From the NCBI GenBank assembly GCA_023898465.1, contig CP060223.1:320001-384000 (forward strand): DNA of 64,000 nucleotides, given 5' to 3'. The stretch is from Candidatus Nomurabacteria bacterium (lineage in GTDB: Bacteria > Patescibacteriota > Patescibacteriia > HK-STAS-PATE-3). Below the pieces are notes generated by a model. It worked only from the letters and a program-made list of their open reading frames with translations, was not told where the DNA came from and ran no database searches. The number at the start of each line of letters is the position of its first letter. Within the stretch, counting starts at the first letter, position 1. The position numbers and the translations under genes are program-made. Below are positions 7,400-58,442 of the stretch, piece by piece.

Positions 7400-8545
7400 A
7401 TGTACACTCTTTCCGTGAATGTAGGCAGCTCAAGTATGAAGTTTGCCGTTTTTGCTCGTGATGAAAAGGTGCTACTGCGGGGTGTGCTCGATGGTATGAA
7501 GCGCGTTAATGTTGTTGTGCATTTGCAGTACGGTAACAAGAAGCGAACCTATGATGTGCGCGGGCCAATTCGTTTGGCTAAGGCGTTTCAATTACTTCGC
7601 AGCGCATTAACCGAGGCGGGGATTGATCAGGCAGAAGTATCAAGCGTGGGTCATCGAGTTGTACACGGGGGAAAGTTTGGTCATGCGGTGAAAATTACCC
7701 CGGCAGTATTACGCGAGTTAAAAAAGTACATTCCACTGGCGCCTCTGCATCAAGGTCAAGATATTGAGGCTATACGTACTGCCCAAAAAGTTTTTCCTGA
7801 GGCGCAGCATATAGCGGTTTTTGACACCTCATTCTTTACGCACTTACCTGAAAAAGCAAAATACTACGCGTTACCGCGAGCGATCATGAAGAAATACCAG
7901 CTGCGCCGGGCAGGTTTCCACGGCCCTTCGCACCAGCACGCTGCCCAGTACGCCGCCCAGAAACTCGGCCGGCCTTTGCGTAAACTTAATCTCATCAGCA
8001 TACACCTAGGTTCAGGCTGTAGCATGACGGCAATTCAGCACGGTAAGCCAGTTGATACCTCTATGGGTTTCACTCCATTGGAAGGCTTAGTCATGTCTAC
8101 TCGTTCTGGTGATATTGATCCTGGCCTGATGCTCTTTCTTTTACGACAGGGATGGAACGTTTCCATGATTGATCGATTACTTCATACGCAATCCGGCTGG
8201 TACGGCCTAAGCGGATTTGTAGATTTTCGTGATGTACTTAAAGCATCTGGTTATCCCGTACCAAATTGGAAATTGCCGCATAAAGTAAATACACAACAAA
8301 AGGCCGAGTGTCGGGCGACAGTCGATACTGTGCTGTATCGACTGACCAAGTATCTTGGTGCGTACTGGGCAGTGCTTGGTGAAGTTGATGCAGTTATTTG
8401 TACCGGCGCAATGGGAGCGAAGAATGTCTGGTTTCGGAAGGCTCTGAAATCCTCCTCGCCTTTGTTTCATCATGCGAAGTGGTTAGCGGTGGAATCAGAC
8501 GAAGAGTTATTAATTGCTCGAGCAGTCCATACTACAGTGAAATAA
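7400..8545 (+). CDS. ackA: Acetate (propionate) kinase
   Basis: 381 aa with the acetate kinase N-terminal pattern (L-NxGSSS-KF) and typical length. It follows pduL by 1 nt. Confidence 0.9.
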   Translation: MYTLSVNVGSSSMKFAVFARDEKVLLRGVLDGMKRVNVVVHLQYGNKKRTYDVRGPIRLAKAFQLLRSALTEAGIDQAEVSSVGHRVVHGGKFGHAVKITPAVLRELKKYIPLAPLHQGQDIEAIRTAQKVFPEAQHIAVFDTSFFTHLPEKAKYYALPRAIMKKYQLRRAGFHGPSHQHAAQYAAQKLGRPLRKLNLISIHLGSGCSMTAIQHGKPVDTSMGFTPLEGLVMSTRSGDIDPGLMLFLLRQGWNVSMIDRLLHTQSGWYGLSGFVDFRDVLKASGYPVPNWKLPHKVNTQQKAECRATVDTVLYRLTKYLGAYWAVLGEVDAVICTGAMGAKNVWFRKALKSSSPLFHHAKWLAVESDEELLIARAVHTTVK

Positions 8546-10834: not shown

Positions 10835-11704
10835 ATGGCCAAAGCAATCGAAAAAAAAGATAAGTTTCACACTGATAAGTCGCCAACTTGGTGCCCGGGC
10901 TGCGGCGATTTCAGTATTTGGATGGCGCTGAAAGAAGCGTTGGAGAAGTTGCAGCTAGAACCAGAAAAAGTTGTGATTGTGTACGGCATTGGTTGTTCTG
11001 GCAATATGGCGAATTATGTCCGCACCTATGGCTTCCACGGCCTGCACGGAAGAGCCTTACCAGTAGGTGAGGCGGTGAAGATGATTAATCCAGGCATGAC
11101 CGTGATCGTAGTCGGTGGAGATGGTGATGGTTTGGGCGAGGGGATCGGCCATTTCTTGCACTCAGTGCGTGGCAATCATGATCTCACGTATATTATTCAT
11201 GATAACCAGGTGTATGGCCTAACCACTGGGCAGACCGCGCCAACCTCAGCTAAGGGTTTTGTTACAAAATCTACTCCCTTCGGCGTCTTGGAAGAGCCGG
11301 TGAACGCCGCAGCACTAGCTTTAGCAGCTGGCGGGCACTTTGTGGCGCGTGGTTTTGCTGGCGAGCAAATGCATTTGGTTGATACTTTGGTTCGAGCTAT
11401 TCAGCACCCTGGCTTCTCGCTTGTAGATGTACTCCAGCCTTGTGTCACTTTTAATGACTTAAATACCTACGCCTGGTTTTTTGAGCGTATTTACAAACTG
11501 GAAGAGAGTGAGTATGCTCCGAATGACCGAATGCAGGCGATGGTAAAAGCAATGGAAAGCGCCACGCTGCCGATTGGTGTGATGTATGAAGGTGAAAGTA
11601 CGCCATATCATTTGGGTGTTGAGGGTCTGGATATTAGTAAGCCTTTAGCTGAGCAAAAGTTGAAGCCGAGAAATATTTCTACGATTGTCGAGCACTACCT
11701 CTAA
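10835..11704 (+). CDS. korB: 2-oxoacid:ferredoxin oxidoreductase beta subunit (TPP-binding)
   Basis: 289 aa with the TPP-binding GDG-X-N-like region (…VVGGDGDGLGEGIGH…) and the conserved N-terminal Cys cluster region. It abuts korA. Confidence 0.82.
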   Translation: MAKAIEKKDKFHTDKSPTWCPGCGDFSIWMALKEALEKLQLEPEKVVIVYGIGCSGNMANYVRTYGFHGLHGRALPVGEAVKMINPGMTVIVVGGDGDGLGEGIGHFLHSVRGNHDLTYIIHDNQVYGLTTGQTAPTSAKGFVTKSTPFGVLEEPVNAAALALAAGGHFVARGFAGEQMHLVDTLVRAIQHPGFSLVDVLQPCVTFNDLNTYAWFFERIYKLEESEYAPNDRMQAMVKAMESATLPIGVMYEGESTPYHLGVEGLDISKPLAEQKLKPRNISTIVEHYL

Positions 11705-11705
11705 G

Positions 11706-13496
11706 ATGAGCACCACAACTCAGGAACAGTTTCGGGAGGGGCCGAGCACGTCACGGGCGCGTTGGCTTTTTCGTAACCCAGTCGCCGAAAGCTTTGCCGC
11801 CAGCTTCCCTGAACATAGCGCGGTTATGCTGCAGCTATTGCAGGCACGGGGCTTAGAAAAGCAAACGCAAATTGATGAATTTTTGCAGCCTGATTATGGC
11901 AGCGACGTGCATGACCCTTTCCTTTTTCGTGATATGCACAAAGCGGTTGATCGCATTATTGATGGCGTGAAAAAAAATGAACGCATTGTTGTGTATGGCG
12001 ACTATGATGCTGATGGCGTGTGTGGCGCTTCTGTGCTCTGGTCTACTCTACATGCCCTCGGTGCCAACCCAGGAGTGTATTTACCTGATCGGCAGAGTGA
12101 GGGTTATGGTTTAAATGAAAAAGCCCTAGAGTCGCTTCACTCGCAGGGTTACACTCTCGTAATCACGGTTGATTGCGGTGTGACGAGCGTGGGGGAAGTA
12201 AAGAAGGCAAATGAGTTAGGCATCGACGTTATTATCACTGACCACCATAGCGAGCCGCCGGAGCTACCTGCCGCTTTTGCTATTCTCAACCCAAAACTCG
12301 CTGAAGAAACATATCCATTTCGTGAATTAGCCGGTACTGCTGTAGGTTTTAAACTAGCTCATGCGCTTTTACTTAAAAGTGAGTATGGGAAATCCTTTAA
12401 TCGTGAGCCCCTCGTGCAAGGTTGGGAAAAATGGCTACTTGATTTAGTGGCAATAGCCACTGTAGCAGACATGATGCCGATGTTAGGTGAGAATCGCACG
12501 TTAACCATGTATGGCTTGAAGGTGTTGCAAAAAACCCGCCGCCTGGGATTACGTTCACTTTTCTCTGTCATGCATAATGATCTCGCGAAAGCGGATACCG
12601 AGACTATCGGCTTCATGATAGCTCCACGCTTAAATGCAGCTGGTCGCCTTGATCATGCAAACACTGCTTTTCGTTTACTTGTTACTGAGGACGCCGCTGA
12701 AGCATTCGCACTGGCTGACGATTTAGAACGGACCAATACAGCTCGCCAGGCAGAGACAGAGCGAATCGTTGATGCAGCTATTGAGCAAATTGGATCTGAG
12801 CCCGAGCAACCGATTGTCGGTGCGTATCATCCAGACTGGCAAGTTGGCGTACTGGGATTAGCGGCCGGCCGCCTGGTGCATCGCTATGGACGTCCGGCTA
12901 TTGTTATGGCTAAGGTGCGTGGTCTGGTAACGGGATCAGGACGTTCTATACCTGCGCTAAATCTCATGGAAGCACTTGACCCGCTTCGTCCAAATTTTGA
13001 AAAGTTCGGTGGGCATCCGCAGGCATGTGGCTTCACATTGAAGGCAAATTACACACCAGAGGAATTTGTTATAGATTTTGCCGCGCGCGCCGGAGAGCTG
13101 CTGAAGGGGAGGGAGTTAGCACCGGAATTACTTATTGACGCGGAACTAGTTTTGCATGATGTGAATTGGGATTTACTTGAACAAATTGAGCAACTGGCAC
13201 CTTTTGGACAGAATGCGCGACGTCCAATTTTCGCAGTCCGCAATGTACAGGTCGTTGAAGCGCGCCAGGTAGGCAAGAAAAATCAACACCTCAGCCTTAC
13301 CATTCGTTCTGCGCAGGGGACTGAACATCGTAGCATCGGCTTTACCTGGGGAGAGGAGCACAGTAAACTACCAGTAGGCAAAAATATTGATTTAGCTTTT
13401 GAGCTCAGTGCAGACGAATGGAATGGTGAACGTCGCCTGCAGCTCAAAATACTTGATATTCATTACAGCGATGAAACAGATAATACTTCGATCTGA
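11706..13496 (+). CDS. recJ: Single-stranded-DNA-specific exonuclease RecJ. The ATG at 11706 is chosen; the track start at 11685 is an alternative start overlapping korB.
   Basis: DHH family motifs (…VVYGDYDADGV…, …VIITDHH…), a DHHA1 region and a C-terminal OB-like domain. About 596 aa. Confidence 0.88.
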   Translation: MSTTTQEQFREGPSTSRARWLFRNPVAESFAASFPEHSAVMLQLLQARGLEKQTQIDEFLQPDYGSDVHDPFLFRDMHKAVDRIIDGVKKNERIVVYGDYDADGVCGASVLWSTLHALGANPGVYLPDRQSEGYGLNEKALESLHSQGYTLVITVDCGVTSVGEVKKANELGIDVIITDHHSEPPELPAAFAILNPKLAEETYPFRELAGTAVGFKLAHALLLKSEYGKSFNREPLVQGWEKWLLDLVAIATVADMMPMLGENRTLTMYGLKVLQKTRRLGLRSLFSVMHNDLAKADTETIGFMIAPRLNAAGRLDHANTAFRLLVTEDAAEAFALADDLERTNTARQAETERIVDAAIEQIGSEPEQPIVGAYHPDWQVGVLGLAAGRLVHRYGRPAIVMAKVRGLVTGSGRSIPALNLMEALDPLRPNFEKFGGHPQACGFTLKANYTPEEFVIDFAARAGELLKGRELAPELLIDAELVLHDVNWDLLEQIEQLAPFGQNARRPIFAVRNVQVVEARQVGKKNQHLSLTIRSAQGTEHRSIGFTWGEEHSKLPVGKNIDLAFELSADEWNGERRLQLKILDIHYSDETDNTSI

Positions 13497-18010: not shown

Positions 18011-18490
18011 CTATTCACCGCTTGATCCGGCGCCGATCGAGGCTCCAAACACCGTCACTCCGTCGCGTTGTCCGATCATCAAGTCAACCGGTGGGAGTTG
18101 GATGAACTTCATCACATAAGGGTTCAGATACTGCAGTACCCGGAAGTGGGCAGCGTATCCGAGTATCGGGTCAAATCCGTCCGAAGGTTGGAAGCCAAGC
18201 GTTGCTGATACACCGAGGAAAGGAAGCGGTTGCACATGGACATGGCCGCCCAACATCCAGAGGATTTCCTTGTCCTCGACCTGCAGGCAGACTTGGGGTC
18301 CGACCGAGAGGTGGCTGAGAGGAAAAAGTCGATGGTACTGACCGTCGAGACGCAGTTCGTCTTCTTCATCGACTCTGGTGTCGCCACCAACGATGATTGC
18401 TCCGAACTTGGGATGAGTATCGTCGTCAGCCAGGCTTGTCCCAGCCATCAAGCCTAGCAGTAACAGTGAAAAAAGAACGCACACTTTCAT
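18011..18490 (-). CDS. Small secreted hypothetical protein with a signal peptide. The gene is strongly GC-enriched compared with its flanks. Start chosen at MKVCVLFSLLLLGLMAGTSLA…
   Basis: ORF-track 18011..18577 with an internal ATG at 18490 preceded by a GGAGGG RBS. There is an N-terminal signal peptide and conspicuous GC-rich codon usage. A spurious antisense ORF (18230..18457) is typical of GC-rich coding DNA. Confidence 0.55.
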   Translation of the reverse strand: MKVCVLFSLLLLGLMAGTSLADDDTHPKFGAIIVGGDTRVDEEDELRLDGQYHRLFPLSHLSVGPQVCLQVEDKEILWMLGGHVHVQPLPFLGVSATLGFQPSDGFDPILGYAAHFRVLQYLNPYVMKFIQLPPVDLMIGQRDGVTVFGASIGAGSSGE

Positions 18491-18578
18491 GGCACACCCT
18501 CCGTATGCATAGTGGAAACTGACGCTTACTATGGTACTCCAGGAGGGACTATCTCGCAAAAAGTGGAGAAATAGCAAC

Positions 18579-47413: not shown

Positions 47414-48883
47414 TTATTCTTCAACTTCAAAGGTGATCTTTTCGCCTGTTGGGTGAATATCTAGGGCGCGATCAGTAGTCCAAATGAGATTACTCCATTT
47501 CAAACCCAGTTGGTCAAAAACGCCAGGACTTGGGATACCGCGTTTCACACCGTCGGTGATTAAGTAGACACCGTCGGCTCCAGGGGAGGTGACGATTTCA
47601 CCATCCTTGAATTTTACCGGATCACCAATTGGGTATTGCTCAAGCTCTGCACGACTGACCGTAGTCCATCGCTGATACTTGAAGCGTGACCGTAGAATTT
47701 CCTTTGAGTAAATAGGATGACGAAGTCCATTTTCTACATAGACAATGCCGCCACTTTCGCGTTCCTGAAAAAGTACGCCAATCGGGTGAACGCTGTCCAC
47801 CTTAATCTCATCGCCATCAGGATAGATGGAGAGATCATCGTAGCTAACATGAATCAGCTCTTCAGGATTAAATCCGAGCTGACGGAAAACCTCTCGTGAA
47901 CGAATTGGGCGCTTTTTGCCATCTGCTAAGAGGTAGACGCCACCGTCAGGGGATTGGAGAAGGCTGAATTCAGGATATTTAATTGGTGTTGCGATTGGAT
48001 ACGCCTCGAGGACGAGTGGGTCTACATCAATAACTTTTTCTGGGTCATAGGAGCTATAGAAGGCTGAGCGAGAATGGAAAGGATGCCGCTTGCCATCTTT
48101 GATTAACCAAATACCGGCCTCACCGCGAGCTCGGAGGAGTGCCCCATCAAAATAGCGGACACTAAACCACTCTTGCCAAATCTTGGCAAAGAGAGAGTTG
48201 CCACCCCATCGTGGATCTCCGCCACCATAGGCGCCTACGTAAGGGTTGTAGGTGTAGAGGGCGGCAGTTGCCTCATTATCAGGAGTGATTTCAATACCAT
48301 CAACTGTGGTTTTGGGAATGCCAACGCCCCAACCAGAAACAGTATAGCCGCGTGACTGCATATCAGCTAGATAGCCATTTTGAATGCGATTACCCGCAGA
48401 ATCAACCTGGGTGCCAAATCCGAAATAGGCTGGATCGCAGTCTCCAGGACAGCCATAGCCCAGCGCCCGGTCAATAAGTTCCTGTGATGCAGTTTTTCGG
48501 GCTCGGACAAGTCCTGATTCTTTTTCAATCAAAACTAGGTAAAACTGTGGACTTAGTCGATATTTTGCTGCAGCCTCGGCAATAAGTCCGGCAGCTGATT
48601 TACGCTCGCCCTGCGCGTTATAACCGCTCACATCTTTTAGTGCGCCGCCGAGAGTGTTTAAGAAACGCTGAATTCGCCCTTCATTCATTGACTGCCAGTT
48701 GAAGAGGTCAGTGTTATTCAGCAGGTTATTTTTGTTAAAACTAAACGCTAAACCAGCCTGGGGAAGGCTGATGGTGAGTATGGTCCCTATGACTGCGAGA
48801 AACAGCGTAATTTTTCGCAGATACGGGTTTGAAGTGTTCCGCATGGTAGATAGAAGTATACTGGTTTTTCTGCTATAGTGCAA
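47414..48883 (-). CDS. Secreted protein with an N-terminal domain of unknown function and four tandem ~60-aa C-terminal repeats (consensus about YL[IL]xDGK[KR]xP[IF]xSxxxFxxLGF)
   Basis: Signal/TM N-terminus. Repeats are visible by eye: …DGKRHPFHSRSAFYSSY…, …DGKKRPIRSREVFRQLGF…, …NGLRHPIYSKEILRSRF…, …DGVKRGIPSPGVFDQLGL…. Confidence 0.5.
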   Translation of the reverse strand: MHYSRKTSILLSTMRNTSNPYLRKITLFLAVIGTILTISLPQAGLAFSFNKNNLLNNTDLFNWQSMNEGRIQRFLNTLGGALKDVSGYNAQGERKSAAGLIAEAAAKYRLSPQFYLVLIEKESGLVRARKTASQELIDRALGYGCPGDCDPAYFGFGTQVDSAGNRIQNGYLADMQSRGYTVSGWGVGIPKTTVDGIEITPDNEATAALYTYNPYVGAYGGGDPRWGGNSLFAKIWQEWFSVRYFDGALLRARGEAGIWLIKDGKRHPFHSRSAFYSSYDPEKVIDVDPLVLEAYPIATPIKYPEFSLLQSPDGGVYLLADGKKRPIRSREVFRQLGFNPEELIHVSYDDLSIYPDGDEIKVDSVHPIGVLFQERESGGIVYVENGLRHPIYSKEILRSRFKYQRWTTVSRAELEQYPIGDPVKFKDGEIVTSPGADGVYLITDGVKRGIPSPGVFDQLGLKWSNLIWTTDRALDIHPTGEKITFEVEE

Positions 48884-49015
48884 GCGATGAGTGGCTTGCT
48901 AAAAATCAATTCTCAAGCAGTAAAACGTGCATGAAATGAGTAAGTTTGTTACTCAATACATCGTTTTGTCTACTCATCTGTTACGGATTAAGATGATGTT
49001 TCAATTGCAAAACCT

Positions 49016-49744
49016 ATGTTAAAGCTTTTTGGTGTACGTATTGATTCTCTGACAAAGGATGAACTGCGAAACAAGTTATTTGCGTTTCGTCAGAGCAGGG
49101 GACACATGATTGCCACGGTGAATCCGGAAATGTTGATGGAGGCTCGAGAAAATAAGGATTTGCAAAAAGCACTCGAGCAAGCTGATCTTCGTTTACCAGA
49201 CGGATTTGGCGTTATGCTGGCGGCAAAGTATCGTGGTCAGGCTTTAGCAGATCGACATCCAGGAATTGATATTATGAGCACCCTATTAGCACAGGCGGCC
49301 AAACAACAGGAGCGGGTGTATCTCTTTGGTGCTAAGTCAGGTGTGGCAGAAAAAGCAGCTGCTCGTCTGGTAAAAAAACATCCAGGCCTACAGATTGTCG
49401 GAGCAGAAAGTGGATTTCGTTTTTGGGGTATTCGCTTATCTGATCGTGAAATGCGTGATCGCATCAAACGCGCAAAACCAGACTTACTCTTCGTAGCGCT
49501 TGGTATCCCTAAGCAGGAGCTATGGCTAGCAAAAAATCTGCCACACCTTTCATCAGTGAAAATCGCTGTAGGCGTCGGTGGCGCTTTTGACGTTTTTGCC
49601 GGAAACGTACGTCGAGCACCTAGTTTCCTGCGAGTTATTGGCTTAGAATGGTTTTGGCGCCTCCTTGTACAACCATGGCGCTGGCAGCGAATTATCACTG
49701 CTACCTATCGTTTCTCACTGGCTGTAATTCGCGCGAAAGAATGA
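49016..49744 (+). CDS. WecB/TagA/CpsF-family glycosyltransferase (GT26; N-acetylmannosaminyl/glucosyl transferase-like)
   Basis: 242 aa. The conserved GT26 pattern is present (…LPDGFGVMLAAKY…, …LLFVALGIPKQELW…). Confidence 0.78.
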   Translation: MLKLFGVRIDSLTKDELRNKLFAFRQSRGHMIATVNPEMLMEARENKDLQKALEQADLRLPDGFGVMLAAKYRGQALADRHPGIDIMSTLLAQAAKQQERVYLFGAKSGVAEKAAARLVKKHPGLQIVGAESGFRFWGIRLSDREMRDRIKRAKPDLLFVALGIPKQELWLAKNLPHLSSVKIAVGVGGAFDVFAGNVRRAPSFLRVIGLEWFWRLLVQPWRWQRIITATYRFSLAVIRAKE

Positions 49745-50892
49745 AATTACCCAGCACCACATTTTCACAGTTAAGTATTTTACTCGGAGCAATACTGGGC
49801 GTGGGCATGTTTGGTTTGCCTTATTTGACAGCCCGAGCGGGTTGGACAAGTCTTTTACTTTGGTTTTTGGTAGCCGGGTTTGTTTTACTTATTGTTGGAT
49901 TTTGCTATATCCGCATTTTGCATAATAGTCAGGGCCAACACCGGCTACCCGGTTATGTTGAACAGCACTTAGGGCATCGTTGGAAACAGGCAGCAATTTT
50001 CACCACCACGATGAGTATTTGGGGCGCCTTGCTCGTATACGCTATCCTAGGCGGACAATTCTTGCATGATTTATTTGCGGATAGTGTGGGAGGTAGTTCG
50101 CTATTCTACCTCTTAGTTTTTTATGTGAGTGCGGCGGCTCTCCTTTATGTACAAGCAAAAACAATTGCTCGTGTGGAAATTTTATTGCTTTGTTTCTTCC
50201 TTGTGCTTCTGGCGATGTTATTTATCACAGGATCACGAACTGTGCAGTTTGATTTTTCTTCTTGGGATATTCGATACTTTATTCTGCCTTACGGCGCAGT
50301 ACTTTTTTCACTCTGGGGCATTGATGTGGTACCCGATGCAGCTGAGTTAGGGGAGAGGAGTGAAAAGCATATGCGTAAAACGTATTTTATTGCCCTAGCG
50401 AGCGCTGTGCTTATTTATTGCTTGTTTGTTTATGCAATACTTTCAATGAGTGGCATGGCGAGTAGTCGAGACGCACTTAGTGGCTTGGTTGGATTATTGC
50501 CACAAAAAGTTTTATTGTTCGGCTATATAATTGGTTTCATTGCCACCTTTACCTCTTTCATTAGTTTGGGAATGAATCTGCACAAGACTTTTCAATTTGA
50601 TTATGGTCAATCTAAGCACCTCGCGCTTTTTTCTACTTTAGCTTTCCCATTGGCCGTAGCTCTAGCTGGAGTTAGTGATTACTTAAATGTCATGGGTATT
50701 GTTGGATCGCTGGCAGTTGGTGCCGAGGCAATTATTATCCTGCACATGTATGATCGTTTTTCCCATGGCAGAGCACATCTCTATCGGCAGCGCGACTGGC
50801 TTACTTTTCTCACTCGTCCGCTCATGCTACTCTTGGGATTCGGAGTTATCTTAGGCATTCTTACCCCATTTTTATTGAAGTATTATGGCTGA
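49741..50892 (+). CDS. Amino-acid-transporter-like polytopic membrane protein (APC superfamily-like, ~11 TM). Internal ATG at 49741 (ATGA overlap).
   Basis: About 383 aa, all hydrophobic helices. N-terminal …LGVGMFGLPY… resembles aromatic/hydroxy amino-acid permease families. Tentative. Confidence 0.45.
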   Translation: MKLPSTTFSQLSILLGAILGVGMFGLPYLTARAGWTSLLLWFLVAGFVLLIVGFCYIRILHNSQGQHRLPGYVEQHLGHRWKQAAIFTTTMSIWGALLVYAILGGQFLHDLFADSVGGSSLFYLLVFYVSAAALLYVQAKTIARVEILLLCFFLVLLAMLFITGSRTVQFDFSSWDIRYFILPYGAVLFSLWGIDVVPDAAELGERSEKHMRKTYFIALASAVLIYCLFVYAILSMSGMASSRDALSGLVGLLPQKVLLFGYIIGFIATFTSFISLGMNLHKTFQFDYGQSKHLALFSTLAFPLAVALAGVSDYLNVMGIVGSLAVGAEAIIILHMYDRFSHGRAHLYRQRDWLTFLTRPLMLLLGFGVILGILTPFLLKYYG

Positions 50893-52321
50893 TTTGACGG
50901 CACCTCGAGTCCGATTTGCCCCTTCGCCAACTGGTGAGCTGCACCTCGGTGGATTACGGACCGCATATTATGATTGGTTACTTGCTCGCAAGTATGGCGG
51001 TACATTTGTTTTACGTATCGAGGACACGGATAGGACACGCTATGTAGAGGGAGCAGAAGAGCGCTTGTTAGCAACTCTCCAACAATTAGGCTTGCAGCCA
51101 GACGAGGGTCCGGGCCTGGGTGGTGAGTATGGACCATATCGTCAATCTGAGCGGCTAAGCATCTATCATGAGGCGATACAAGAGTTGATTGAGAAGAAGC
51201 AGGCATATTATTGTACTTGTACACCGGAGCGATTAGAAAAAATGCGTGCTGAGCAAAGCGCAAACAAGCAAGCTCCAGGCTATGATCGACATTGTCGTGA
51301 TCGTTATAATGAAAAACCAACTGAGCCGCATGTAGTACGTTTTCGCATGCCGGATAATGAAAAAATCACGGTAAATGATTTCTTACGGGGTAACTTAAAC
51401 GTTGCTACTAGCACGCTGGATGATTTTGTTATTCTCAAGGCTGACGGGTTTCCCACCTATCACAGCGCAGTGGTCATCGATGATCATGCTATGCAGATTA
51501 CGCACGTTTTGAGGGGCGAGGAATGGTTACCATCATTACCAAAGCACGTTTTGCTTTATCAGGCCTTTGGATGGGAAGCGCCGGTTTTTGTCCACCTCCC
51601 GCTCATCTTAGGTAAAGACAAGAAAAAGCTTTCGAAACGCCATGGCGCGCATTCAGTAGAAAAATTTTTGCAAGACGGTGTATTGTCTGAGCCTTTGTTA
51701 AACGCGATTGCTTTGCTGGGATGGCACGCCTCTGATGATCAAGAAAAATATACCCGCCAGGAATTATTAGCAAAGTTTTCACTAGAAGGATTGCAAAAAT
51801 CTTCAGCAGTTTTTGATCCGGAAAAATTAGCCTGGCTCAATGCGCAGTATATCAAAACAATGGATATAAAAGACTTGAGCGTGCTTGCCCGGCCTTATAT
51901 TTCTGATGTGATCGCTCCGCAATATCTTGAGCGATTAGATGAGGCGCTGCCACTCGTAATTGAACGAATTACACAGCTGAGTGAATTACCTGAGCGGCTG
52001 AGCTTTTTACAGAACGAGTTACACTATGATCAGGAAATCGTTCCCTTCAAAACACAGAGTAGGGAAGAGGCGCATGCCGCGCTTCAGCAAGATATGGATT
52101 GGCTGATGGCGTACAATGGTGAATGGGGTACGCAAGCTTTAGAAAAATTCTTCCATGAGCAAGTAGAAACTCTGGGTAAAAAAGTGGGAGAATATTTTTG
52201 GCCCTTGCGTGTCGCCTTGAGCGGCAAGAAAGCCTCACCTGGGACATTTGAGCTGCTGCATTTCTTCGGTAGGGAAGAGGCGCAAAAGCGCATTCAACAA
52301 GCATTGCAAGCGCTTCAATAA
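50885..52321 (+). CDS. gltX: Glutamyl-tRNA synthetase
   Basis: HIGH motif (PSPTGELHLGG), KMSKS variant (KLSKR) and an anticodon-binding C-terminal domain. 478 aa. Confidence 0.95.
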   Translation: MADLTAPRVRFAPSPTGELHLGGLRTAYYDWLLARKYGGTFVLRIEDTDRTRYVEGAEERLLATLQQLGLQPDEGPGLGGEYGPYRQSERLSIYHEAIQELIEKKQAYYCTCTPERLEKMRAEQSANKQAPGYDRHCRDRYNEKPTEPHVVRFRMPDNEKITVNDFLRGNLNVATSTLDDFVILKADGFPTYHSAVVIDDHAMQITHVLRGEEWLPSLPKHVLLYQAFGWEAPVFVHLPLILGKDKKKLSKRHGAHSVEKFLQDGVLSEPLLNAIALLGWHASDDQEKYTRQELLAKFSLEGLQKSSAVFDPEKLAWLNAQYIKTMDIKDLSVLARPYISDVIAPQYLERLDEALPLVIERITQLSELPERLSFLQNELHYDQEIVPFKTQSREEAHAALQQDMDWLMAYNGEWGTQALEKFFHEQVETLGKKVGEYFWPLRVALSGKKASPGTFELLHFFGREEAQKRIQQALQALQ

Positions 52322-52330
52322 TAGTTAGTC

Positions 52331-52385
52331 GCAGGCGAGGAGTTTATCCTCGCCGAATCCAAACGCCCAAGATAAATTCTTGGGC
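52331..52385. repeat. Left arm of a 55-nt inverted-repeat pair (double-hairpin element: GGCGAGGA-GTTTA-TCCTCGCC … GCCCAAGA-TAAAT-TCTTGGGC)
   Basis: Its reverse complement matches 54771-54824 at 52 of 54 positions. It lies 10 nt after the gltX stop. Confidence 0.85.
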
Positions 52386-52526
52386 TACGCGTGAATGAGT
52401 ATCTTCAGCAATAAATGCATTCACACAAGCGTAACAAGAGTAAGACTTGTGCGATATACAGTATGTTAACGGTTTTTTGTGAGGACTAGCCAAAAACTTT
52501 ATCTCGTGCTATAGTATATAGGCAAT

Positions 52527-53852
52527 ATGGGGGCAAAAAAGCTCAACCAAAAAGCAAAATATCTACGCATTAGTATATGCACCCTCCTGGTCGCAATAAT
52601 CGCGGCTGGCGGCTTTTTGTCATTCTCATGGCAGCAATTAGCTGGTATTGCGAAAGCTCAAGACGTTAGTATTCCAGATGAAACAACAACCGAGCTCATT
52701 AATCTCAATAGTGATATTGAAAATAAGCGCGATGAAATTAATGACTTAGAAAAGAAGAGTCAAGCCTACCAGCAAAATATTAACAAGAAACTCCAGCAAT
52801 CGCAGTCAATTGAAACGCAGCTTTCCACTTTAGAGGATCAAATCGCTCAGACGGAAACCGATCTCGAAAAAACCAATCTAGAGGTTGAGAAGTATGGATT
52901 AGAAATACAGCAAGTAGAGGGATCAATAGCCAAGCGAAATGAAGAAATAGATGCGGCAAAAGATCGAATCGGTGAGTTTATTCGAGTCATGCATCGCAAT
53001 GATAGTCGCACATATTTAGAAATTTCTTTACTACATGATAACTTCTCGAGTTATTTCATGCAGGAACGGGCGGTAAAGGATATTGAAAATGAAACCAAGA
53101 AGGCGCTTGATCAGCTGCATGTGTTAAAACAGGGTCTAGAGGATGATCTAGATACCTTAACTGACAAAAAGCGTGAACTCGATGAGGCAAAAACACGTTT
53201 GGAAAGTACTAAAGATGCGCATGCACAGGAGTTAGAATACCAACAGTTGCTTTTGACTCAGGTGCAAGGGGAGTCAGGTGAATTACAATCATTGCTTGAT
53301 GAGGTCCAACAGCAGGTTAATCAGGCCACTTCCGAAGTTTCTGTACTTGAGAATCGTTTCCGCGACCGTCTCTCTGAGGAAAATATCGATTTAGATACTT
53401 TACTGCAGGCTCAAAATGACTTTATTTGGCCAGTAAATCCAACTCGAGGCATTAGTGCTTATTTCCATGATCCTAGCTATCCTTATCGCGGCTATTTTGA
53501 GCATAACGCTATTGATGTCCCGACGCCTCAAGGCACTCAAGTTCGGGCTTCCGCCGATGGTATAGTAAGTATTGCTCGTGACACAAATTGGACCACCGAC
53601 AGCAGGGGACGACGAATTCCAGCCTATAACTATGTTTCCATCATTCACGGTGGCGGTATTTCAACGGTCTATGGCCACTTAAGTGCGGTATATGTGTCGC
53701 CAGAGCAATTTGTCCGCAAAGGAGAGGTGATAGGATTAAGTGGGGCAACGCCTGGCACGGCTGGTGCTGGACTCTTTACGACCGGACCACACTTGCACTT
53801 AGAGTTTCGACTTAACGGTATTCCAGTTAATCCTTTGAACTACTTGCCGTAG
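52527..53852 (+). CDS. Membrane-anchored coiled-coil M23-family (LytM-domain) peptidoglycan endopeptidase, EnvC/NlpD-like architecture but with an intact metal site
   Basis: N-terminal TM helix, about 250 aa of heptad-rich coiled coil, then a C-terminal M23 domain with H-x(3)-D (…HNAIDV…) and HLH (…GPHLHLEF…) zinc ligands. Confidence 0.8.
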   Translation: MGAKKLNQKAKYLRISICTLLVAIIAAGGFLSFSWQQLAGIAKAQDVSIPDETTTELINLNSDIENKRDEINDLEKKSQAYQQNINKKLQQSQSIETQLSTLEDQIAQTETDLEKTNLEVEKYGLEIQQVEGSIAKRNEEIDAAKDRIGEFIRVMHRNDSRTYLEISLLHDNFSSYFMQERAVKDIENETKKALDQLHVLKQGLEDDLDTLTDKKRELDEAKTRLESTKDAHAQELEYQQLLLTQVQGESGELQSLLDEVQQQVNQATSEVSVLENRFRDRLSEENIDLDTLLQAQNDFIWPVNPTRGISAYFHDPSYPYRGYFEHNAIDVPTPQGTQVRASADGIVSIARDTNWTTDSRGRRIPAYNYVSIIHGGGISTVYGHLSAVYVSPEQFVRKGEVIGLSGATPGTAGAGLFTTGPHLHLEFRLNGIPVNPLNYLP

Positions 53853-53887
53853 CATTCTTGTGTGAATGTTGTCGAATTGCCGCAGGC

Positions 53888-53915
53888 CTTTACCGGGCCT
53901 GTTTTGTTAGGTACT
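53888..53915 (+). terminator. Rho-independent terminator after the M23 peptidase gene (CAGGCC-TTTACCG-GGCCTG followed by TTTT)
   Basis: A GC-rich hairpin plus a T-run about 35 nt after the stop codon. Confidence 0.55.
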
Positions 53916-54014
53916 ATGTTCATACTGCAACATAGGGAGAGGAGGGCTTCCCATTGTTGGCGTAAGCTACTCCTGCATATTGACAAAGGACTGTAGAGCA
54001 TTGGAGGGTTAACC

Positions 54015-54668
54015 ATGCGTTGGAAGAGCATGTCTTACCTGGCCTTCTTGATGGCCTTCATCGTCAGTCTCGGTACGTGGACGGGCGCTCAGGCAGCTGA
54101 GGAAGAGGTCTGTGATCCTCAGCCGGTGATCATGTGCACTTCGGCCTACTATGACTTCATGAGGCTCCTCACGGACGGTAACTGCTCGACTGTGGTGACC
54201 GAAGGGGAGAGCTCCTGGACCTTCAATTCGTGGCCACTGCTGTACTGCACGCAAGTGCCGGCAACGCTCAACTACGATGACTACTTCAGCACCGTGTCGA
54301 GTACGATCGAGCTGCGCGACGAGCATCCTTCGTTGAGCTTGATGAGTGACGGCGAGTGCTTCGAGGTCTACGCGGCGTGTCAGGGAGGTGCCTACGGCGT
54401 CACGGTGATGTATACGCACGCTGATGGATCGATGAGCTACGTCGGACAGCCGGGTGATTGCCCAGTCCAGATCAGTGGCGCCATTGCACTCAAGTTCGAC
54501 GGCGAGGCGCGCGAGCTCTACGTCGACGAGGGTTTTCGGACTCAAGTCTATCGAGTCGATGACCCACTTGGCTCACAGCACGCTCGAACCCTTCTACCGG
54601 ACCAGGCCGATACCCAAAGCGATAGGGTAGCGACCGACCAGTTCGCTGAAGTGGTATCCACGCGCTAG
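54015..54668 (+). CDS. Cysteine-rich secreted hypothetical protein with a signal peptide. The gene has strikingly high GC and GC3 relative to the rest of the window.
   Basis: 217 aa with N-terminal signal peptide MRWKSMSYLAFLMAFIVSLGTWTGAQA and 8 Cys in the mature part. Codons are dominated by G/C-ending triplets. A long spurious antisense ORF (54009..54545) is typical for GC-rich genes. Confidence 0.6.
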   Translation: MRWKSMSYLAFLMAFIVSLGTWTGAQAAEEEVCDPQPVIMCTSAYYDFMRLLTDGNCSTVVTEGESSWTFNSWPLLYCTQVPATLNYDDYFSTVSSTIELRDEHPSLSLMSDGECFEVYAACQGGAYGVTVMYTHADGSMSYVGQPGDCPVQISGAIALKFDGEARELYVDEGFRTQVYRVDDPLGSQHARTLLPDQADTQSDRVATDQFAEVVSTR

Positions 54669-54675
54669 TTCCCAG

Positions 54676-54728
54676 CTCGGAGCAAGTTACTTACTTAGGT
54701 GAGTAGCAGCTCCGAGCTTTCTTTCTTT
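54676..54728 (+). terminator. Terminator-like long hairpin after the GC-rich gene (AGCTCGGAGC … GCTCCGAGCT, 10-bp stem) followed by a TTTCTTTCTTT tract
   Basis: A perfect 10-bp stem with a T-rich tail. Confidence 0.5.
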
Positions 54729-54770
54729 AAAGAAGCTATTACAAGCGAGAAGTATAATGCATCTACGCTA

Positions 54771-54824
54771 CCCAAGAATTTATCTTGGGCGTTTAGATTC
54801 GGCGAGGATAAATTCCTCGCCTGC
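54771..54824. repeat. Right arm of the inverted-repeat pair (inverted copy of 52331-52385)
   Basis: CCCAAGAATTTATCTTGGGCGTTTAGATTCGGCGAGGATAAATTCCTCGCCTGC is the reverse complement of the left arm except at 2 positions. Confidence 0.85.
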
Positions 54825-54981
54825 TCTTAGAGGGGAGCATAACCTGTGTAACTAATATAGTGTCGCACAATATATCTTCTACGTCGCTATAACCATATAA
54901 TGCAATAAAAGGCCTATTCCTAGCATCTAGGCAGATAGTGCGAAATTAGCCTCTATTTTGCTCTCTACGGCGTCTTTTACC

Positions 54982-56022
54982 CTATTTTAGGTATACACGC
55001 TCTCCAAATCTCACATCAATATATCGTAAGCTTTCTGGATGTACGCTCGGGTCTTGCAAAGTTCGCTGTAGTTTATTGATCTGCGCTTCAATATCATCTT
55101 TGAGGACATATACTTGCCAGCCAGCTTCGGTGACGATATGAAATTCAGGTGTAAAATATAGCAGCTGTTGTATATCACATGTAGACTCAGGCAGATCCTC
55201 GCTTTCATTTGTATTCGCAGCTAGATTTGTATTCGTTGTTTTATTTGTGTTACTTATGACATCTGAGTCATCCTCTACAGGTATATTTGCCTCAGAAGGA
55301 GTATTCACGCAATCAAGTTGAGGTATAAGTACTTTTTGCATAGAAAAGTCACTCGGAAAGCTATCAGTAAATTTTTGTATCCCGTGTAAGATGTTTGCAT
55401 CTATTTTTTGACTCCCCACATCAACACTCAACTCATTCTCATCTTCAATACGCAATAAGTTAAGCTCCTCATCATTATTTTGTATTTCTGAAATGATAAA
55501 GCCATTTTCATCCATGAAATATTTTTTTTCGCGTGACTGCCAAATATATTTTGCTGATTTTGCTTGGATGCTGATAGTGAGTGTATTTGGGAAGTCTTTT
55601 TGGATGGAGATATTTTCTACTCCTAAGATGTTGGCTATCGCCTGTTCAAGATGGTCGCCAAACCATAAGGGTCGTAAAATAAAATAGTTTTGGTTGGGTA
55701 TGACAAGTAGTGTTCGTTTACTTAACAACACATCTACTTGCGTGGCAATTTGCTGCTCCAATTGAGTAGTGCTATCGATGAGCTCGATGTGTATTGATGA
55801 GATGCGGAACATTGGCGAGTTCATAATAACGTACCAGAGCAACCCAAATACAAGCACTTGGAGAATAAGAAGTGTGCGGTTCCGCCAACGAGATTGGAGA
55901 CGGGTTTGTTCGCTTGGAAAAAGTGGATTACTACGATGCGAATAATGCACCTCGCTCGTAGCAGGCTTCGGGAGTGTTCGTCGTTTCCGACGTGAAAATA
56001 TACGAGAAAGGAATCGCCGCAT
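54982..56022 (-). CDS. FtsQ/DivIB-like cell division protein (POTRA-domain type), tentative
   Basis: 346 aa with a basic N-terminus, a single TM helix (…LLILQVLVFGLLWYVIM…) and then a periplasmic domain with a POTRA-like start (…FRISSIHIE…). Confidence 0.45.
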   Translation of the reverse strand: MRRFLSRIFSRRKRRTLPKPATSEVHYSHRSNPLFPSEQTRLQSRWRNRTLLILQVLVFGLLWYVIMNSPMFRISSIHIELIDSTTQLEQQIATQVDVLLSKRTLLVIPNQNYFILRPLWFGDHLEQAIANILGVENISIQKDFPNTLTISIQAKSAKYIWQSREKKYFMDENGFIISEIQNNDEELNLLRIEDENELSVDVGSQKIDANILHGIQKFTDSFPSDFSMQKVLIPQLDCVNTPSEANIPVEDDSDVISNTNKTTNTNLAANTNESEDLPESTCDIQQLLYFTPEFHIVTEAGWQVYVLKDDIEAQINKLQRTLQDPSVHPESLRYIDVRFGERVYLK

Positions 56023-56032
56023 AACTTCCCTA

Positions 56033-57154
56033 TTATTTCACAATGTGTCGCGGGAGCAAAGGATGGATGTGGGTAATTACTTCATAGTTAATAGTGCCCA
56101 TATCTTTGGCAATATCCTGTGCGCTTAGTTCCTCTCTCCCCTGCCGGCCGATAATAACCACTTCGTCTCCAGCTTTTGCTTGAGGAATTAGTTCACAATT
56201 TACCACACTGAGATTCATGGATAGGCGGCCTAAAAACTTTGCTACTTTCCCTCGCAGCAGTACCTGACCATTATTAGAGAGTGATCGTTGCAGGCCCTCA
56301 AAATACCCGATAGGAAGTACAGCCACTCGCATTTTTTTCTTCACTCGATAGGTGCGATCATATCCGATTGTCGTGCTAGGCGGCAGTGTTTTAATTGCGA
56401 GCACTCGAGTTTTCCAACTTAGCACTGGACGAAGTTTGAGGTCTTGTATTTTTTTTAGCTCCGGGGCTGGCCACAAACCATACATGCCTAAACCTACTCG
56501 CAGCATGTCATAGCGCATCTTAGGATACTTCAGTACCGCGGCGGTGCAGCTAATATGACGAATAGCTTTTTTATCAAGTACTACCTGTAACTCTTCAACA
56601 CATTCCTGGAAACGCTTGTTTTGCTGAAGTGTAAAAGACTTGTTATTACTTTCTGATTGCGCAAAATGAGAAAACACGCCATTCATTTTTAGCGCTGGTT
56701 TTGCTAGCAGTAGTTTTTTTAGTTTTGCGAGCTCGTTTGGCAGGAAGCCGATCCGGCTCGTGCCAACATCAAGCTTAAGATGAAGAGAGAGGCGTTTTTG
56801 TAAGCTTGTAGGTAGGGCGCGTATCTCTTGGAGTTGGGCAAACGAGTGCAATACAAGGGAGATATTATTTTGCACCGCAGCACTCGCGCTCTGAGTATCC
56901 CAGTAGCTTAAAACAACAATTGGTTTGCGTATGCCCAGAGCTCGTAACTCTAGCGCTTCGTCAAGATTCGCCGTACCAAATACGTCCACGTTGTTTTGAA
57001 GTATCTTTACTACCTCAGGTGTTCCTAGTCCGTAGGCGTTTGATTTTACCACTGCCATAAGCTTCGCATTTCCGCTGATACGTCGAAAAGCCTTGGCATT
57101 ATGTACAAGCGCCGATTTACTCAGCTCAATCCAAGTAAATTCTGTTTTAGGCAC
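56033..57154 (-). CDS. alr: Alanine racemase
   Basis: PLP-lysine motif (AVVKSNAYGLG) near the N-terminus and a typical two-domain length of 373 aa. Confidence 0.88.
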   Translation of the reverse strand: MPKTEFTWIELSKSALVHNAKAFRRISGNAKLMAVVKSNAYGLGTPEVVKILQNNVDVFGTANLDEALELRALGIRKPIVVLSYWDTQSASAAVQNNISLVLHSFAQLQEIRALPTSLQKRLSLHLKLDVGTSRIGFLPNELAKLKKLLLAKPALKMNGVFSHFAQSESNNKSFTLQQNKRFQECVEELQVVLDKKAIRHISCTAAVLKYPKMRYDMLRVGLGMYGLWPAPELKKIQDLKLRPVLSWKTRVLAIKTLPPSTTIGYDRTYRVKKKMRVAVLPIGYFEGLQRSLSNNGQVLLRGKVAKFLGRLSMNLSVVNCELIPQAKAGDEVVIIGRQGREELSAQDIAKDMGTINYEVITHIHPLLPRHIVK

Positions 57155-58442
57155 GGGGGCGAAGTTCTTTTAGGCCAACAATTTTCTGCAGAGCCTTAGG
57201 TATCTTTACGCTGCCGTCTTTCTGCTGATGATTTTCCAGGAGTGCAATCAGGATGCGCGGTGAAGCGATGACAGTATTGTTTAGTGTGTACACAAATTGT
57301 CGCTCGCTCCCCTCTCCTTCGCCTTTCGTTTTGATGTTTAATCGGCGGGCTTGCCAGTCGCTGAGGTTTGAGCTGGAGTGCGTTTCTCCATACCCTTGTC
57401 GGCCCGGCATCCATGTTTCAATATCAACCATGCGGCGTTTACCAGCCCCCATATCCCCCGTCGAAGTTTCAATGAGTTGATATGGTAAGTCGAGATGCTC
57501 TAACATTTTTTGAGAAATATCCAGCATGGTAGTAAACCATTTTTCTGCTTCAGCAGCCTCAGGTTTACATAGCACGACTTGCTCAACTTTTACGAATTCT
57601 CTCACACGATAAAGTCCCTTTGTGTCTTTACCATAGCTGCCAATTTCTTCGCGATAACATTGACTAATACCGCAGAGGAGTTTTGGCAATTGCACTTCTG
57701 GAATAGTTTCATTTGCGTAGTACGAAAGTAGTGCAGGCTCAGAAGTGCCGGCTAAATATAGCGCCTCGCGATCATCCGCTGGAGTTTCACTGCCTGGACT
57801 TTGTAGTGAAAAGATTTCATTTTTCCCAAAAGGAAAATGACCACTTCCGTAAAGCGCAAAACCCTTAATAGCAGTTGGAGGTGTCATTAAGGTAAAGCCA
57901 GCTTTTTGCATTTCCTGCAAGCCCAGTAAAAGAATTGCCTGTTGTAAAAGCACAGCTTCGTTTTTTAAATAGTATCCACGGAAGCCGGCTACTTGAGCGC
58001 CTTTCTCTAGATCGAGAATATCCAGAGCAAGGCCGAGGCTAATATGATCCTTTGCTTCAAAGGAAAATGTCTTTGGTGTGCCGACTTGCTTGATCACCTT
58101 ATTGCTACTTGCGTCGGGGCCAATCGGAGCTCCTTCCCAAGGTATGTTTGGCATGCGCCAAAGCATTTCATCACGCTCGAGAGTTAACTCTTTTAATTTT
58201 GCTTCCAAGTCCTGCAGCCTTTGCTTAAGCTCCTTTGCCTGAGTGATCTGGGCAGGATCAGATTGTTTGCCTTGCTTAGCCAGTGCATTTCTCTCTGCTC
58301 GTACAGTTTCTGTTTCGCTGAGCAGTGCGCGATACTCTTTGTCGACTTGAAGAAAGCGATCAAAGTCAATTGATACCCCCTTGTTTTTTATGGCCTCGCG
58401 TACAATGTCCTGATTAGCCAAAATGAAAGAAGTATCAAGCAT
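57147..58442 (-). CDS. serS: Seryl-tRNA synthetase
   Basis: N-terminal coiled-coil arm plus a class II catalytic core with motifs 1-3. 431 aa. Confidence 0.93.

Follow-up and report, generated by a model that had tools for sequence, protein, structure and literature searches.

A probable horizontally acquired orphan gene in a recurrent-insertion gap with a dif-like phage attachment site of a Candidate Phyla Radiation chromosome

Chromosomal dif sites are about 28-31 bp long and consist of two arms of about 11 bp with partial dyad symmetry around a central region of 6-8 bp (PMC5357621), and in Legionella the criteria for recognizing them were a length of about 30 bp, AT-richness, a partly palindromic sequence, a non-coding location and varying neighbours (PMC9765430). 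Integrative mobile elements that make use of Xer (IMEXs) include CTXphi, VGJphi, TLCphi, the gonococcal GGI and Legionella LME-1 (PMC5357621, PMC9765430), while the dif modules of Acinetobacter are gene modules flanked by pdif sites (PMC7399989, PMC12907356). Inoviruses in hosts of the Candidate Phyla Radiation (CPR) have been reported by Roux et al., in a text that does not mention Xer or dif (PMC6813254), and the literature searched holds no description of a dif site in Patescibacteria. Here we analyse a 64,000-nucleotide (nt) stretch of contig CP060223.1 of a Candidatus Nomurabacteria bacterium (hereafter the window), and in particular its open reading frame (ORF) 54015-54668. We consider it quite likely that in this CPR chromosome the ORF is a genuine orphan gene, specific to its lineage and acquired horizontally, situated in a gap of recurrent insertion that also holds a dif-type phage attachment site. 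The ORF and the signals around it are listed below, in window coordinates.

54015..54668, plus strand: foreign orphan ORF of 217 aa, recognized by composition, stop-free length and gene signals; no homologs.
54003..54007, plus strand: Shine-Dalgarno sequence GGAGG, 7 nt 5' of the ATG, read from the sequence.
54674..54729, plus strand: the ORF's own intrinsic terminator, a long hairpin at 54674-54718 followed by UUUCUUUCUUU (-33.2 kcal/mol, z = -5.8).
54009..54545, minus strand: antisense ORF of 178 aa, judged spurious; no family, no homolog.

The initial annotation had described the ORF as far richer in GC than its surroundings, with codons ending mostly in G or C, and the windowed GC, the GC at third codon positions (GC3) and the codon fit that we computed all bear this out. 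Its GC is 0.584 (GC1 0.569, GC2 0.459, GC3 0.725), compared to 0.454±0.030 for the 52 other long ORFs of the window, whose GC3 is 0.427±0.043 with a maximum of 0.582. The corresponding z-scores are 6.9 for GC3, 4.3 for GC and -4.5 for codon fit (leave-one-out), and neither GC3 nor codon usage is like that of the neighbouring genes. In a 60-nt sliding profile the rise in GC (about 54040-54690) is essentially the coding sequence itself, and the third codon positions of this frame hold most of the excess; the stretch therefore evolved as coding DNA in a genome of higher GC and is not simply GC-rich non-coding sequence. Among 2,000 shuffles matched for composition, the 99th percentile of the stop-free length is 193 codons, and the 217 codons of the ORF lie above it. 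In both base composition and codon usage the ORF is foreign relative to the resident genes. The antisense ORF shares its codon boundaries with the sense frame, its position 3 being sense position 1. It was rejected as a real gene, just as it had been called spurious before, since it has no family or homolog except a gene call on the same DNA and its frame puts the GC excess at codon position 1.

The GGAGG is unusual for this host. Among 47 native ORFs of the window, whose start codons were assigned mechanically and are therefore approximate, a Shine-Dalgarno-like motif was found within 20 nt of the assigned start in seven, and the use of such motifs thus seems to be low in this genome. An alternative start of the ORF at 54030 has no record in public assemblies.

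Provided that the gene is functional, its product is on balance predicted to be a Sec-exported, acidic, probably beta-rich and disulfide-bonded extracellular protein that is cut after AQA. The signal peptide, which we judged by inspection without a dedicated predictor, would span residues 1-27 and consist of MRWK, the 16-residue hydrophobic core SMSYLAFLMAFIVSLGTW and TGAQA, with the mature chain starting at AEEE. This N-terminal segment is the sole hydrophobic segment of the protein (Kyte-Doolittle 1.99) and has the canonical n-h-c organisation. The predicted cleavage site, between AQA and A, has small residues at -3 and -1, no Cys at +1 and no lipobox, and there is no C-terminal anchor in the 217-aa protein. 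The signal peptide named in the initial annotation is in keeping with these features, while the eight cysteines ascribed there to the mature domain have to be corrected to seven (residues 33, 41, 57, 78, 115, 122 and 149 of the 217-aa protein). The predicted mature protein comprises 190 aa with a pI of 4.05, 7 Cys, 1 Lys and 8 Arg; Cys makes up 3.2% compared to 0.5±0.4% in window proteins, and Lys 0.9% compared to 5.6%. An internal duplication, for which a 25-nt direct repeat 150 nt apart was considered, was rejected because the protein self-alignment is not significant (z = 0.9). One may speculate that the protein takes part in cell-surface or host interaction, and a role as an effector or adhesin would be pure conjecture from its sequence.

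No family had been recognised for this protein, and our searches agree with this. The 217-aa sequence has no match in Pfam, PHROGs, NCBIfam or PDB sequences, none in a word-seeded search of 5.8 billion protein clusters and none by tblastn in phage or plasmid collections, and no tblastn-confirmed relative was found in genome, metagenome or viral contigs. HMMER, run exhaustively over 1.84 billion representatives, brought up a fragment of this very protein and two large repeat proteins, P0002 (806 aa) and P0003 (2632 aa). The latter two were rejected as homologs, because their whole-protein E-values sum 3-4 near-identical repeats with 10-14 bits per domain and independent E-values above 1e3. The predicted protein is a true orphan, without any credible relative in the collections searched. 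Because no homolog was found, there is no donor phylogeny, and the donor can only be approached through composition: a regression of GC3 on GC across the clade loci leads to a donor GC of about 0.64, which together with the ORF's own GC of 0.584 gives an inferred donor GC of roughly 58-64%. This range fits many phyla.

The position of the ORF relative to conserved genes carries the second part of the argument. Using homologs of the adjacent M23 peptidase as anchors (M23 identity 42-68%), we recovered the syntenic locus from nine lineages. The conserved order has WecG, a permease, GltX and M23 on one strand, converging on an ftsQ-like gene, (ddl), alr, serS and further genes on the opposite strand. 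The features of this region in the window are the following.

52527..53852, plus strand: ancestral neighbour, EnvC-like coiled-coil M23 peptidase gene of native composition (GC3 0.394).
53853..54824, no strand assigned: non-ancestral block of about 970 nt, from the M23 stop codon to the GGGGAG block; relatives have only 2-22 nt here.
53882..53902, plus strand: weak terminator-like hairpin (-15.1 kcal/mol, z = -1.7) with a T-run, behind the M23 gene and at the left boundary of the non-ancestral block.
54832..54837, plus strand: conserved GGGGAG block, directly after the M23 stop codon in relatives.
54982..56022, minus strand: ancestral neighbour, ftsQ-like gene convergent with M23; Pfam matches weak and sub-threshold, position between M23 and ddl/alr kept in relatives.

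GGGGAG marks the start of the ancestral gap, because in the relatives it directly follows the M23 stop codon. The inserted block 53853-54824 has no similarity to any other locus compared, and the exact ftsQ-like protein of the window has no record in public assemblies. The content of the gap between M23 and ftsQ varies among the loci as follows.

Window: 1,129 nt, containing the high-GC ORF 54015-54668.
L023, L024, L026, L027 and L028: empty, 115-140 nt.
L021: a 233-aa ORF of very low GC (0.28).
L029: a DUF2188 gene.
L030: a RidA-like gene (GC3 0.79 versus a host mean of 0.46) and a 112-aa ORF.

With the gaps of its relatives empty or differently filled, ORF 54015-54668 stands out as an insertion specific to its lineage. 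None of the more distant relatives sampled carries it at the syntenic site, and widespread, vertically inherited homologs in close relatives did not appear in the sampled syntenic loci. This absence at the orthologous position and the foreign composition together uphold the horizontal acquisition proposed in the initial annotation. The gap between M23 and ftsQ is a recurrent landing place that was hit independently several times, often by compositionally foreign genes. The same annotation had considered a CPR- or Saccharibacteria-like host: the GltX of the window is 45-52% identical to proteins of Patescibacteria and of Saccharimonadales metagenome-assembled genomes, and the assignment to the CPR/Patescibacteria stands, while that to a Saccharibacterium does not.

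The ORF and its junctions are identical in three independent assemblies, namely the window, L001 (Logan, SRR14234116) and L022 (Logan, SRR12358676). L001 differs from the window by 4 single-nucleotide polymorphisms (SNPs) over 3.4 kb and L022 by 28 SNPs over 11.3 kb, none of them in the ORF or its junctions. Because these assemblies share the ORF and junctions and differ elsewhere, the ORF is not an assembly artefact.

The only part of the 1,129-nt gap that matches any other locus is a 28-mer, located 190 nt from the ORF.

54860..54887, minus strand: dif-like 28-mer GCGACGTAGAA-GATATA-TTGTGCGACAC, in which an AT-rich spacer of 6 nt separates a variable arm from a conserved arm of 11 nt each.

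The sequence GTCGCACAATATA(C/T)CTT is present in the gap of all nine lineages, over a range of host GC from 0.33 to 0.56, and it is non-coding and AT-rich. On the other strand the consensus reads as a variable 11-nt arm, a GRTATA spacer and the nearly invariant arm TTGTGCGACnC. In the 64-kb window the 28-mer occurs once, with a weight-matrix score of 40.6 as against 15.2 for the next best position. It also occurs in two Saccharibacteria loci with different neighbours, which had been fetched only through GltX similarity, and there it forms a nearly perfect palindrome, TGTCGCA(T/A)AA-GATATA-TTGTGCGACA. All copies fit the 11-6-11 register, and those from Saccharibacteria and viral contigs are symmetric at 7-11 of the 11 arm positions, e.g. 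TGTCGCATAA-GATATA-TTGTGCGACA. The neighbours vary from PadR/NifS-like in L005 and murC-like in L018 to murG/ftsQ/DUF3048 in L103. As judged from the sequences, both the architecture and the setting of the 28-mer match the dif criteria cited above. No tyrosine recombinase was found among the 10 window ORFs scanned. A reading of the 28-mer as a promoter, small RNA or operator, in view of its TATATT -10-like core and its resemblance to NrdR-box palindromes, was rejected, since the neighbours differ, there is no Rfam match and hybrid copies flank integrated phages.

Phages make use of this site. We scanned IMG/VR for exact matches to 15 nt of the site and scored the remaining 13 positions against a null. 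This gave 127 sites in 119 contigs; 44 of the sites (about 1 expected) lie above the 99th percentile of the null, most of them being the full palindromic 28-mer. Fourteen of the site-bearing contigs form one sequence cluster, and in eight contigs a Zot-like gene lies between two direct copies spaced 5.1-5.9 kb from each other (Pfam PF05707, 23 bits versus a cutoff of 20.3; also PHROG 197). L103 encodes in addition a G2P-type replication initiator (PF23343, 41 bits), and its element contains no integrase-sized ORF with a recombinase domain. The order in L103 is host murG-like and ftsQ-like genes, a full site, a 5.5-kb element, a hybrid site and host DNA. The full site reads ATGTCGTAAAA-GATATA-TTGTGCGACGC; its hybrid partner, TGTTCCTACTT-GATATA-TTGTGCGACGC, has a new variable arm and the same spacer and conserved arm. 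Read in this way, the L103 layout is the predicted attL/attR footprint of an integrase-less filamentous phage that uses the host recombinase, i.e. of an IMEX. In L047 the 28-mer again lies just 3' of an ftsQ-like gene.

Several further observations concern the site and its surroundings. The conserved arm (TTGTGCGAC) belongs to 28-mer copies at L005:15864-15891, L018:15608-15635 and L103:2209-2236 and 7732-7759. L030:11249-12808 holds three site-like copies: the full site at 11600-11627, and the conserved arm only at 11267-11294 (inverted) and at 11880-11907. In L021, the closest metagenomic relative (M23 68% identical), the 233-aa gap ORF occupies L021:862-1563 on the minus strand among neighbours with a GC of about 0.40; it has no family match, and it ends in a stop codon that overlaps the 28-mer in the variable arm. 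The idea that this cargo interrupts the conserved motif was rejected, because L021 has the complete, uninterrupted 28-mer with the cargo next to it. The conserved GGGGAG is found 24-30 nt from the conserved arm and extends in L027 to GAGAAGGG, which we take to be the SpoIIIE/FtsK-type recognition motif of B. subtilis. A second conserved block, CCTATTTTGCC, lies at about 54940-54955 near the ftsQ stop codon. In the ancestral gap the two blocks flank the 28-mer, and both have equivalent positions in L021-L030. Terminator halves, accessory sequences or translocase-orienting motifs are candidate roles for these two blocks.

A location of the 28-mer at the replication terminus is only partly supported. 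The total GC skew is above zero over 1-55 kb and below zero after about 56 kb, the cumulative-skew maximum (56096) is 1.2 kb from the 28-mer (at 54874), with only 9 kb of the window to the right of the site, and a local cumulative-skew maximum lies within about 1.2 kb of the site in five of eight loci. Gene orientation, however, flips at the same place and confounds this comparison, and the third-position skew, in which the replication signal should show, remains positive on both sides of the window's 28-mer (+0.126 to +0.041) and differs in its behaviour among relatives.

The 28 SNPs that separate the window from L022 are all at or beyond 55006, i.e. 119 nt past the 28-mer, and the 7.5 kb towards the other side contain none (P = 7e-14 for uniform SNPs; 55006-58318 versus 47527-55005). 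The four SNPs that distinguish L001 likewise lie on the ftsQ side. The two flanks of the 28-mer therefore differ in recent history, and the one-sided SNPs may reflect a recombination or sweep boundary at the dif-like site.

The course of events that we favour is as follows. A block of about 970 nt entered the gap between the stop codon of M23 and the conserved non-coding stretch ahead of the ftsQ-like gene, bringing its own Shine-Dalgarno sequence, a 217-codon coding sequence and a strong intrinsic terminator, and ending in a two-hairpin element. The gap contains a 28-bp dif-type (Xer-like) site that integrase-less filamentous CPR phages use for attachment. The foreign composition, the insertion, the orphan status, the hotspot and this phage use are shown by the data, while the product of the gene would be exported by Sec, cleaved after AQA and act outside the cell. 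The two-hairpin element is one arm of a 54-nt inverted repeat.

52331..52384, plus strand: left arm, two 8-bp hairpins, 10 nt after the gltX stop codon (z = -5.4).
54771..54824, minus strand: right arm, likewise folding into two 8-bp hairpins (z about -5.4), at the right end of the inserted block, with 52/54 matches and both mismatches outside the stems.

A number of observations weigh against this course of events or loosen parts of it, and most of them would suit a fragment of foreign high-GC DNA, perhaps truncated or decaying, whose ORF and apparent signal peptide have no present function. The absence of a homolog, in about 15 billion proteins, bears on both donor and function. No sigma-70-like promoter was found between the M23 gene and the ORF, and read-through from M23 may be possible because the terminator-like hairpin behind that gene is weak. 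AlphaFold2 without an alignment gave no confident structure (pLDDT 34.8 for the mature protein and 32.7 for the core minus tail). Gene callers disagree on the region, which in L022 is split into a 105-aa antisense and a 108-aa sense product; as the DNA is identical to that of the window, this split is a calling artefact and not a disruption. The ORF is invariant among the assemblies, so that there is no population variation to show constraint and purifying selection is not measurable. Nevertheless we regard a non-functional fragment as unlikely, since the third-position GC excess is that of coding evolution in this frame, the ORF is intact from start to stop, longer than 99% of shuffles and equipped with an ideally spaced GGAGG, a strong terminator and a canonical n-h-c N-terminus, and its sequence is unchanged in three populations. 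In addition, the nearest relatives without the gene are distant (M23 at most 68% identical), and for this reason the acquisition, initially called recent, is so only in a relative sense. Finally, 37 nt separate the block from the 28-mer core and no second site copy is present, which touches the question of how the block arrived. The ORF could be cargo that was captured by Xer-type recombination at the dif-like site, as an IMEX remnant or a dif-module-like cassette whose second hybrid copy has since decayed or been deleted. The integrase-less inoviruses clearly use the 28-mer, the ORF lies on the conserved-arm side of it like the L103 prophage, cargo in L029 and L030 is accompanied by extra site-like copies (those of L030 keep the conserved arm), and the one-sided SNPs begin just past the site. 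We nonetheless think such a capture rather unlikely. A weight matrix detects no second copy, even degenerate, in 52300-55000, where one site scores at least 3; the 37 nt from site to insert are ancestral, with conserved GGGGAG spacing, so the insert junction is not at the crossover region; and the block has no phage genes, its cargo protein and DNA being dissimilar to the prophage loci. Xer-mediated capture of the block is not shown: there is no Xer footprint, only a hotspot beside a recombination site.

For the insertion of a foreign orphan gene that we prefer, the source and the extent of the transferred unit can be weighed as well. The proposal of an effector or adhesin taken from a high-GC actinobacterial host of an epibiotic CPR cell has in its favour that the organism is a CPR bacterium and that the estimated donor GC of 58-64% overlaps the lower part of the actinobacterial range. 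Cultivated Patescibacteria, mostly Saccharibacteria, are moreover described as growing as epibionts on Actinobacteria (PMC10633639). Yet this origin is quite improbable: neither an actinobacterial nor any other homolog turned up in the genome, metagenome and protein collections searched, the organism does not belong to the Saccharibacteria, and a CPR donor would fit just as well, given that L029, of the same CPR clade (GC 0.56), has genes with GC3 up to 0.735. The inverted repeat had been thought to bound a cassette, and a mobile or invertible unit of M23 and the ORF, moving or flipping as one, would explain why its arms (52/54 complementary, i.e. 96%, 0 expected by chance) occur nowhere else in the window and enclose precisely these two genes. 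The repeat itself is real, but its arms do not bound the acquired unit, because the M23 gene between them is ancestral, with native composition and conserved synteny, the interval holds neither a transposase nor a recombinase, and the flanks (AGTC before the left arm, TCTT after the right) are not a target-site duplication. The order and orientation gltX-M23-ftsQ are kept in seven relatives without the repeat, the orientation is the same in all three assemblies, and we hold a moving or flipping cassette to be highly improbable. Both arms lie just behind the 3' end of a transcription unit, one behind gltX and the other behind the ftsQ operon, with matching orientation relative to it; in this they fit a REP-like (repetitive extragenic palindrome) or terminator-like element, and the right arm either arrived with the block or was copied locally. 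A metagenomic chimera, in which a high-GC fragment of another organism was spliced into the CPR contig, would account for an abrupt change in composition confined to about 650 nt. With identical junctions in three data sets that were assembled separately and show SNPs at other positions, and with flanks that carry coherent gene signals, we deem it vanishingly improbable.

Two observations on other parts of the window are added here. In relatives ddl (D-Ala-D-Ala ligase) lies between the ftsQ-like gene and alr (L023:7449-10688, L026:2262-5561 and L027-L030), while in the window (54982-57154) alr directly follows the ftsQ-like gene and ddl is missing from that position. A second compositional outlier lies at 18011-18577 on the minus strand, opposite to all its neighbours, with a GC3 of 0.58 and a codon fit as poor as that of ORF 54015-54668. 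Read from an internal Met, it would have a signal peptide (MKVCVLFSLLLLGLMAGTSLA, cut before DDD) ahead of about 140 aa; Pfam, PHROG and NCBIfam gave no match for it, and it is a candidate for another foreign small secreted protein.

Taken alone, ORF 54015-54668 is an ordinary, clean horizontally acquired orphan, one more predicted small secreted protein in a CPR genome. Its context outweighs the gene: a dif-type site conserved across distant CPR lineages and used by integrase-less inoviruses. The candidate CPR dif site and the inovirus IMEXs are a more valuable by-product than the orphan islet itself. Foreign genes have demonstrably entered this gap and stayed there, which makes it of practical use to know for the genetics now being developed in Patescibacteria, and within these tiny genomes genes of deviating composition gather at a recombination hotspot instead of being scattered randomly. 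A broader hypothesis, which we put forward as a long shot, is that the M23/ftsQ gap holds the undescribed chromosomal dif site of many CPR/Patescibacteria, possibly served by one Xer-type recombinase and acting, in addition to its use by filamentous prophages, as a gene-capture platform for repeated uptake of single foreign genes, with the orphan as one capture retained for a cell-surface role in episymbiosis. A single recombinase is possible because the Saccharibacteria copies of the 28-mer are near-palindromic. If the hypothesis is true, the 28-mer would be a defined CPR site for chromosome-dimer resolution and phage attachment and a natural landmark for the replication terminus.

Compared with ORFan single-gene islets, ORF 54015-54668 is alike in its deviating composition and codons, its absence at the syntenic site, its lack of homologs and its own expression signals. 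It differs in that the donor is not inferable and that the site, hit repeatedly in related lineages, is neither a tRNA gene nor part of a larger island. With small secreted cysteine-rich effector-like proteins the predicted product shares a signal peptide, small size and a Cys content about six times the host average, whereas it matches no sequence or structural family, has an odd number of cysteines (7) and is very acidic. Extragenic hairpin repeats of the REP, bacterial interspersed mosaic element (BIME) or miniature inverted-repeat transposable element (MITE) kind are the comparison class for the 54-nt arms, which likewise form two stable hairpins just 3' of transcription units as a near-identical inverted pair but are seen in two copies within 64 kb.

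The resemblance to IMEXs lies in the site: a 28-mer of dif architecture, hybrid copies of which flank integrase-less Zot/G2P prophages in other CPR genomes, with the ORF on the same side of it as those prophages. Unlike an IMEX, the ORF block lacks phage genes as well as a second copy of the site, and it begins 37 nt from the core and not in the spacer. The dif modules of Acinetobacter are mainly found on plasmids and are bounded by two inverted sites, whereas the window has a single site; common to both are small cargoes of one or two genes at Xer-type sites, and in L030 site-like copies, one of them inverted, separate short modules.

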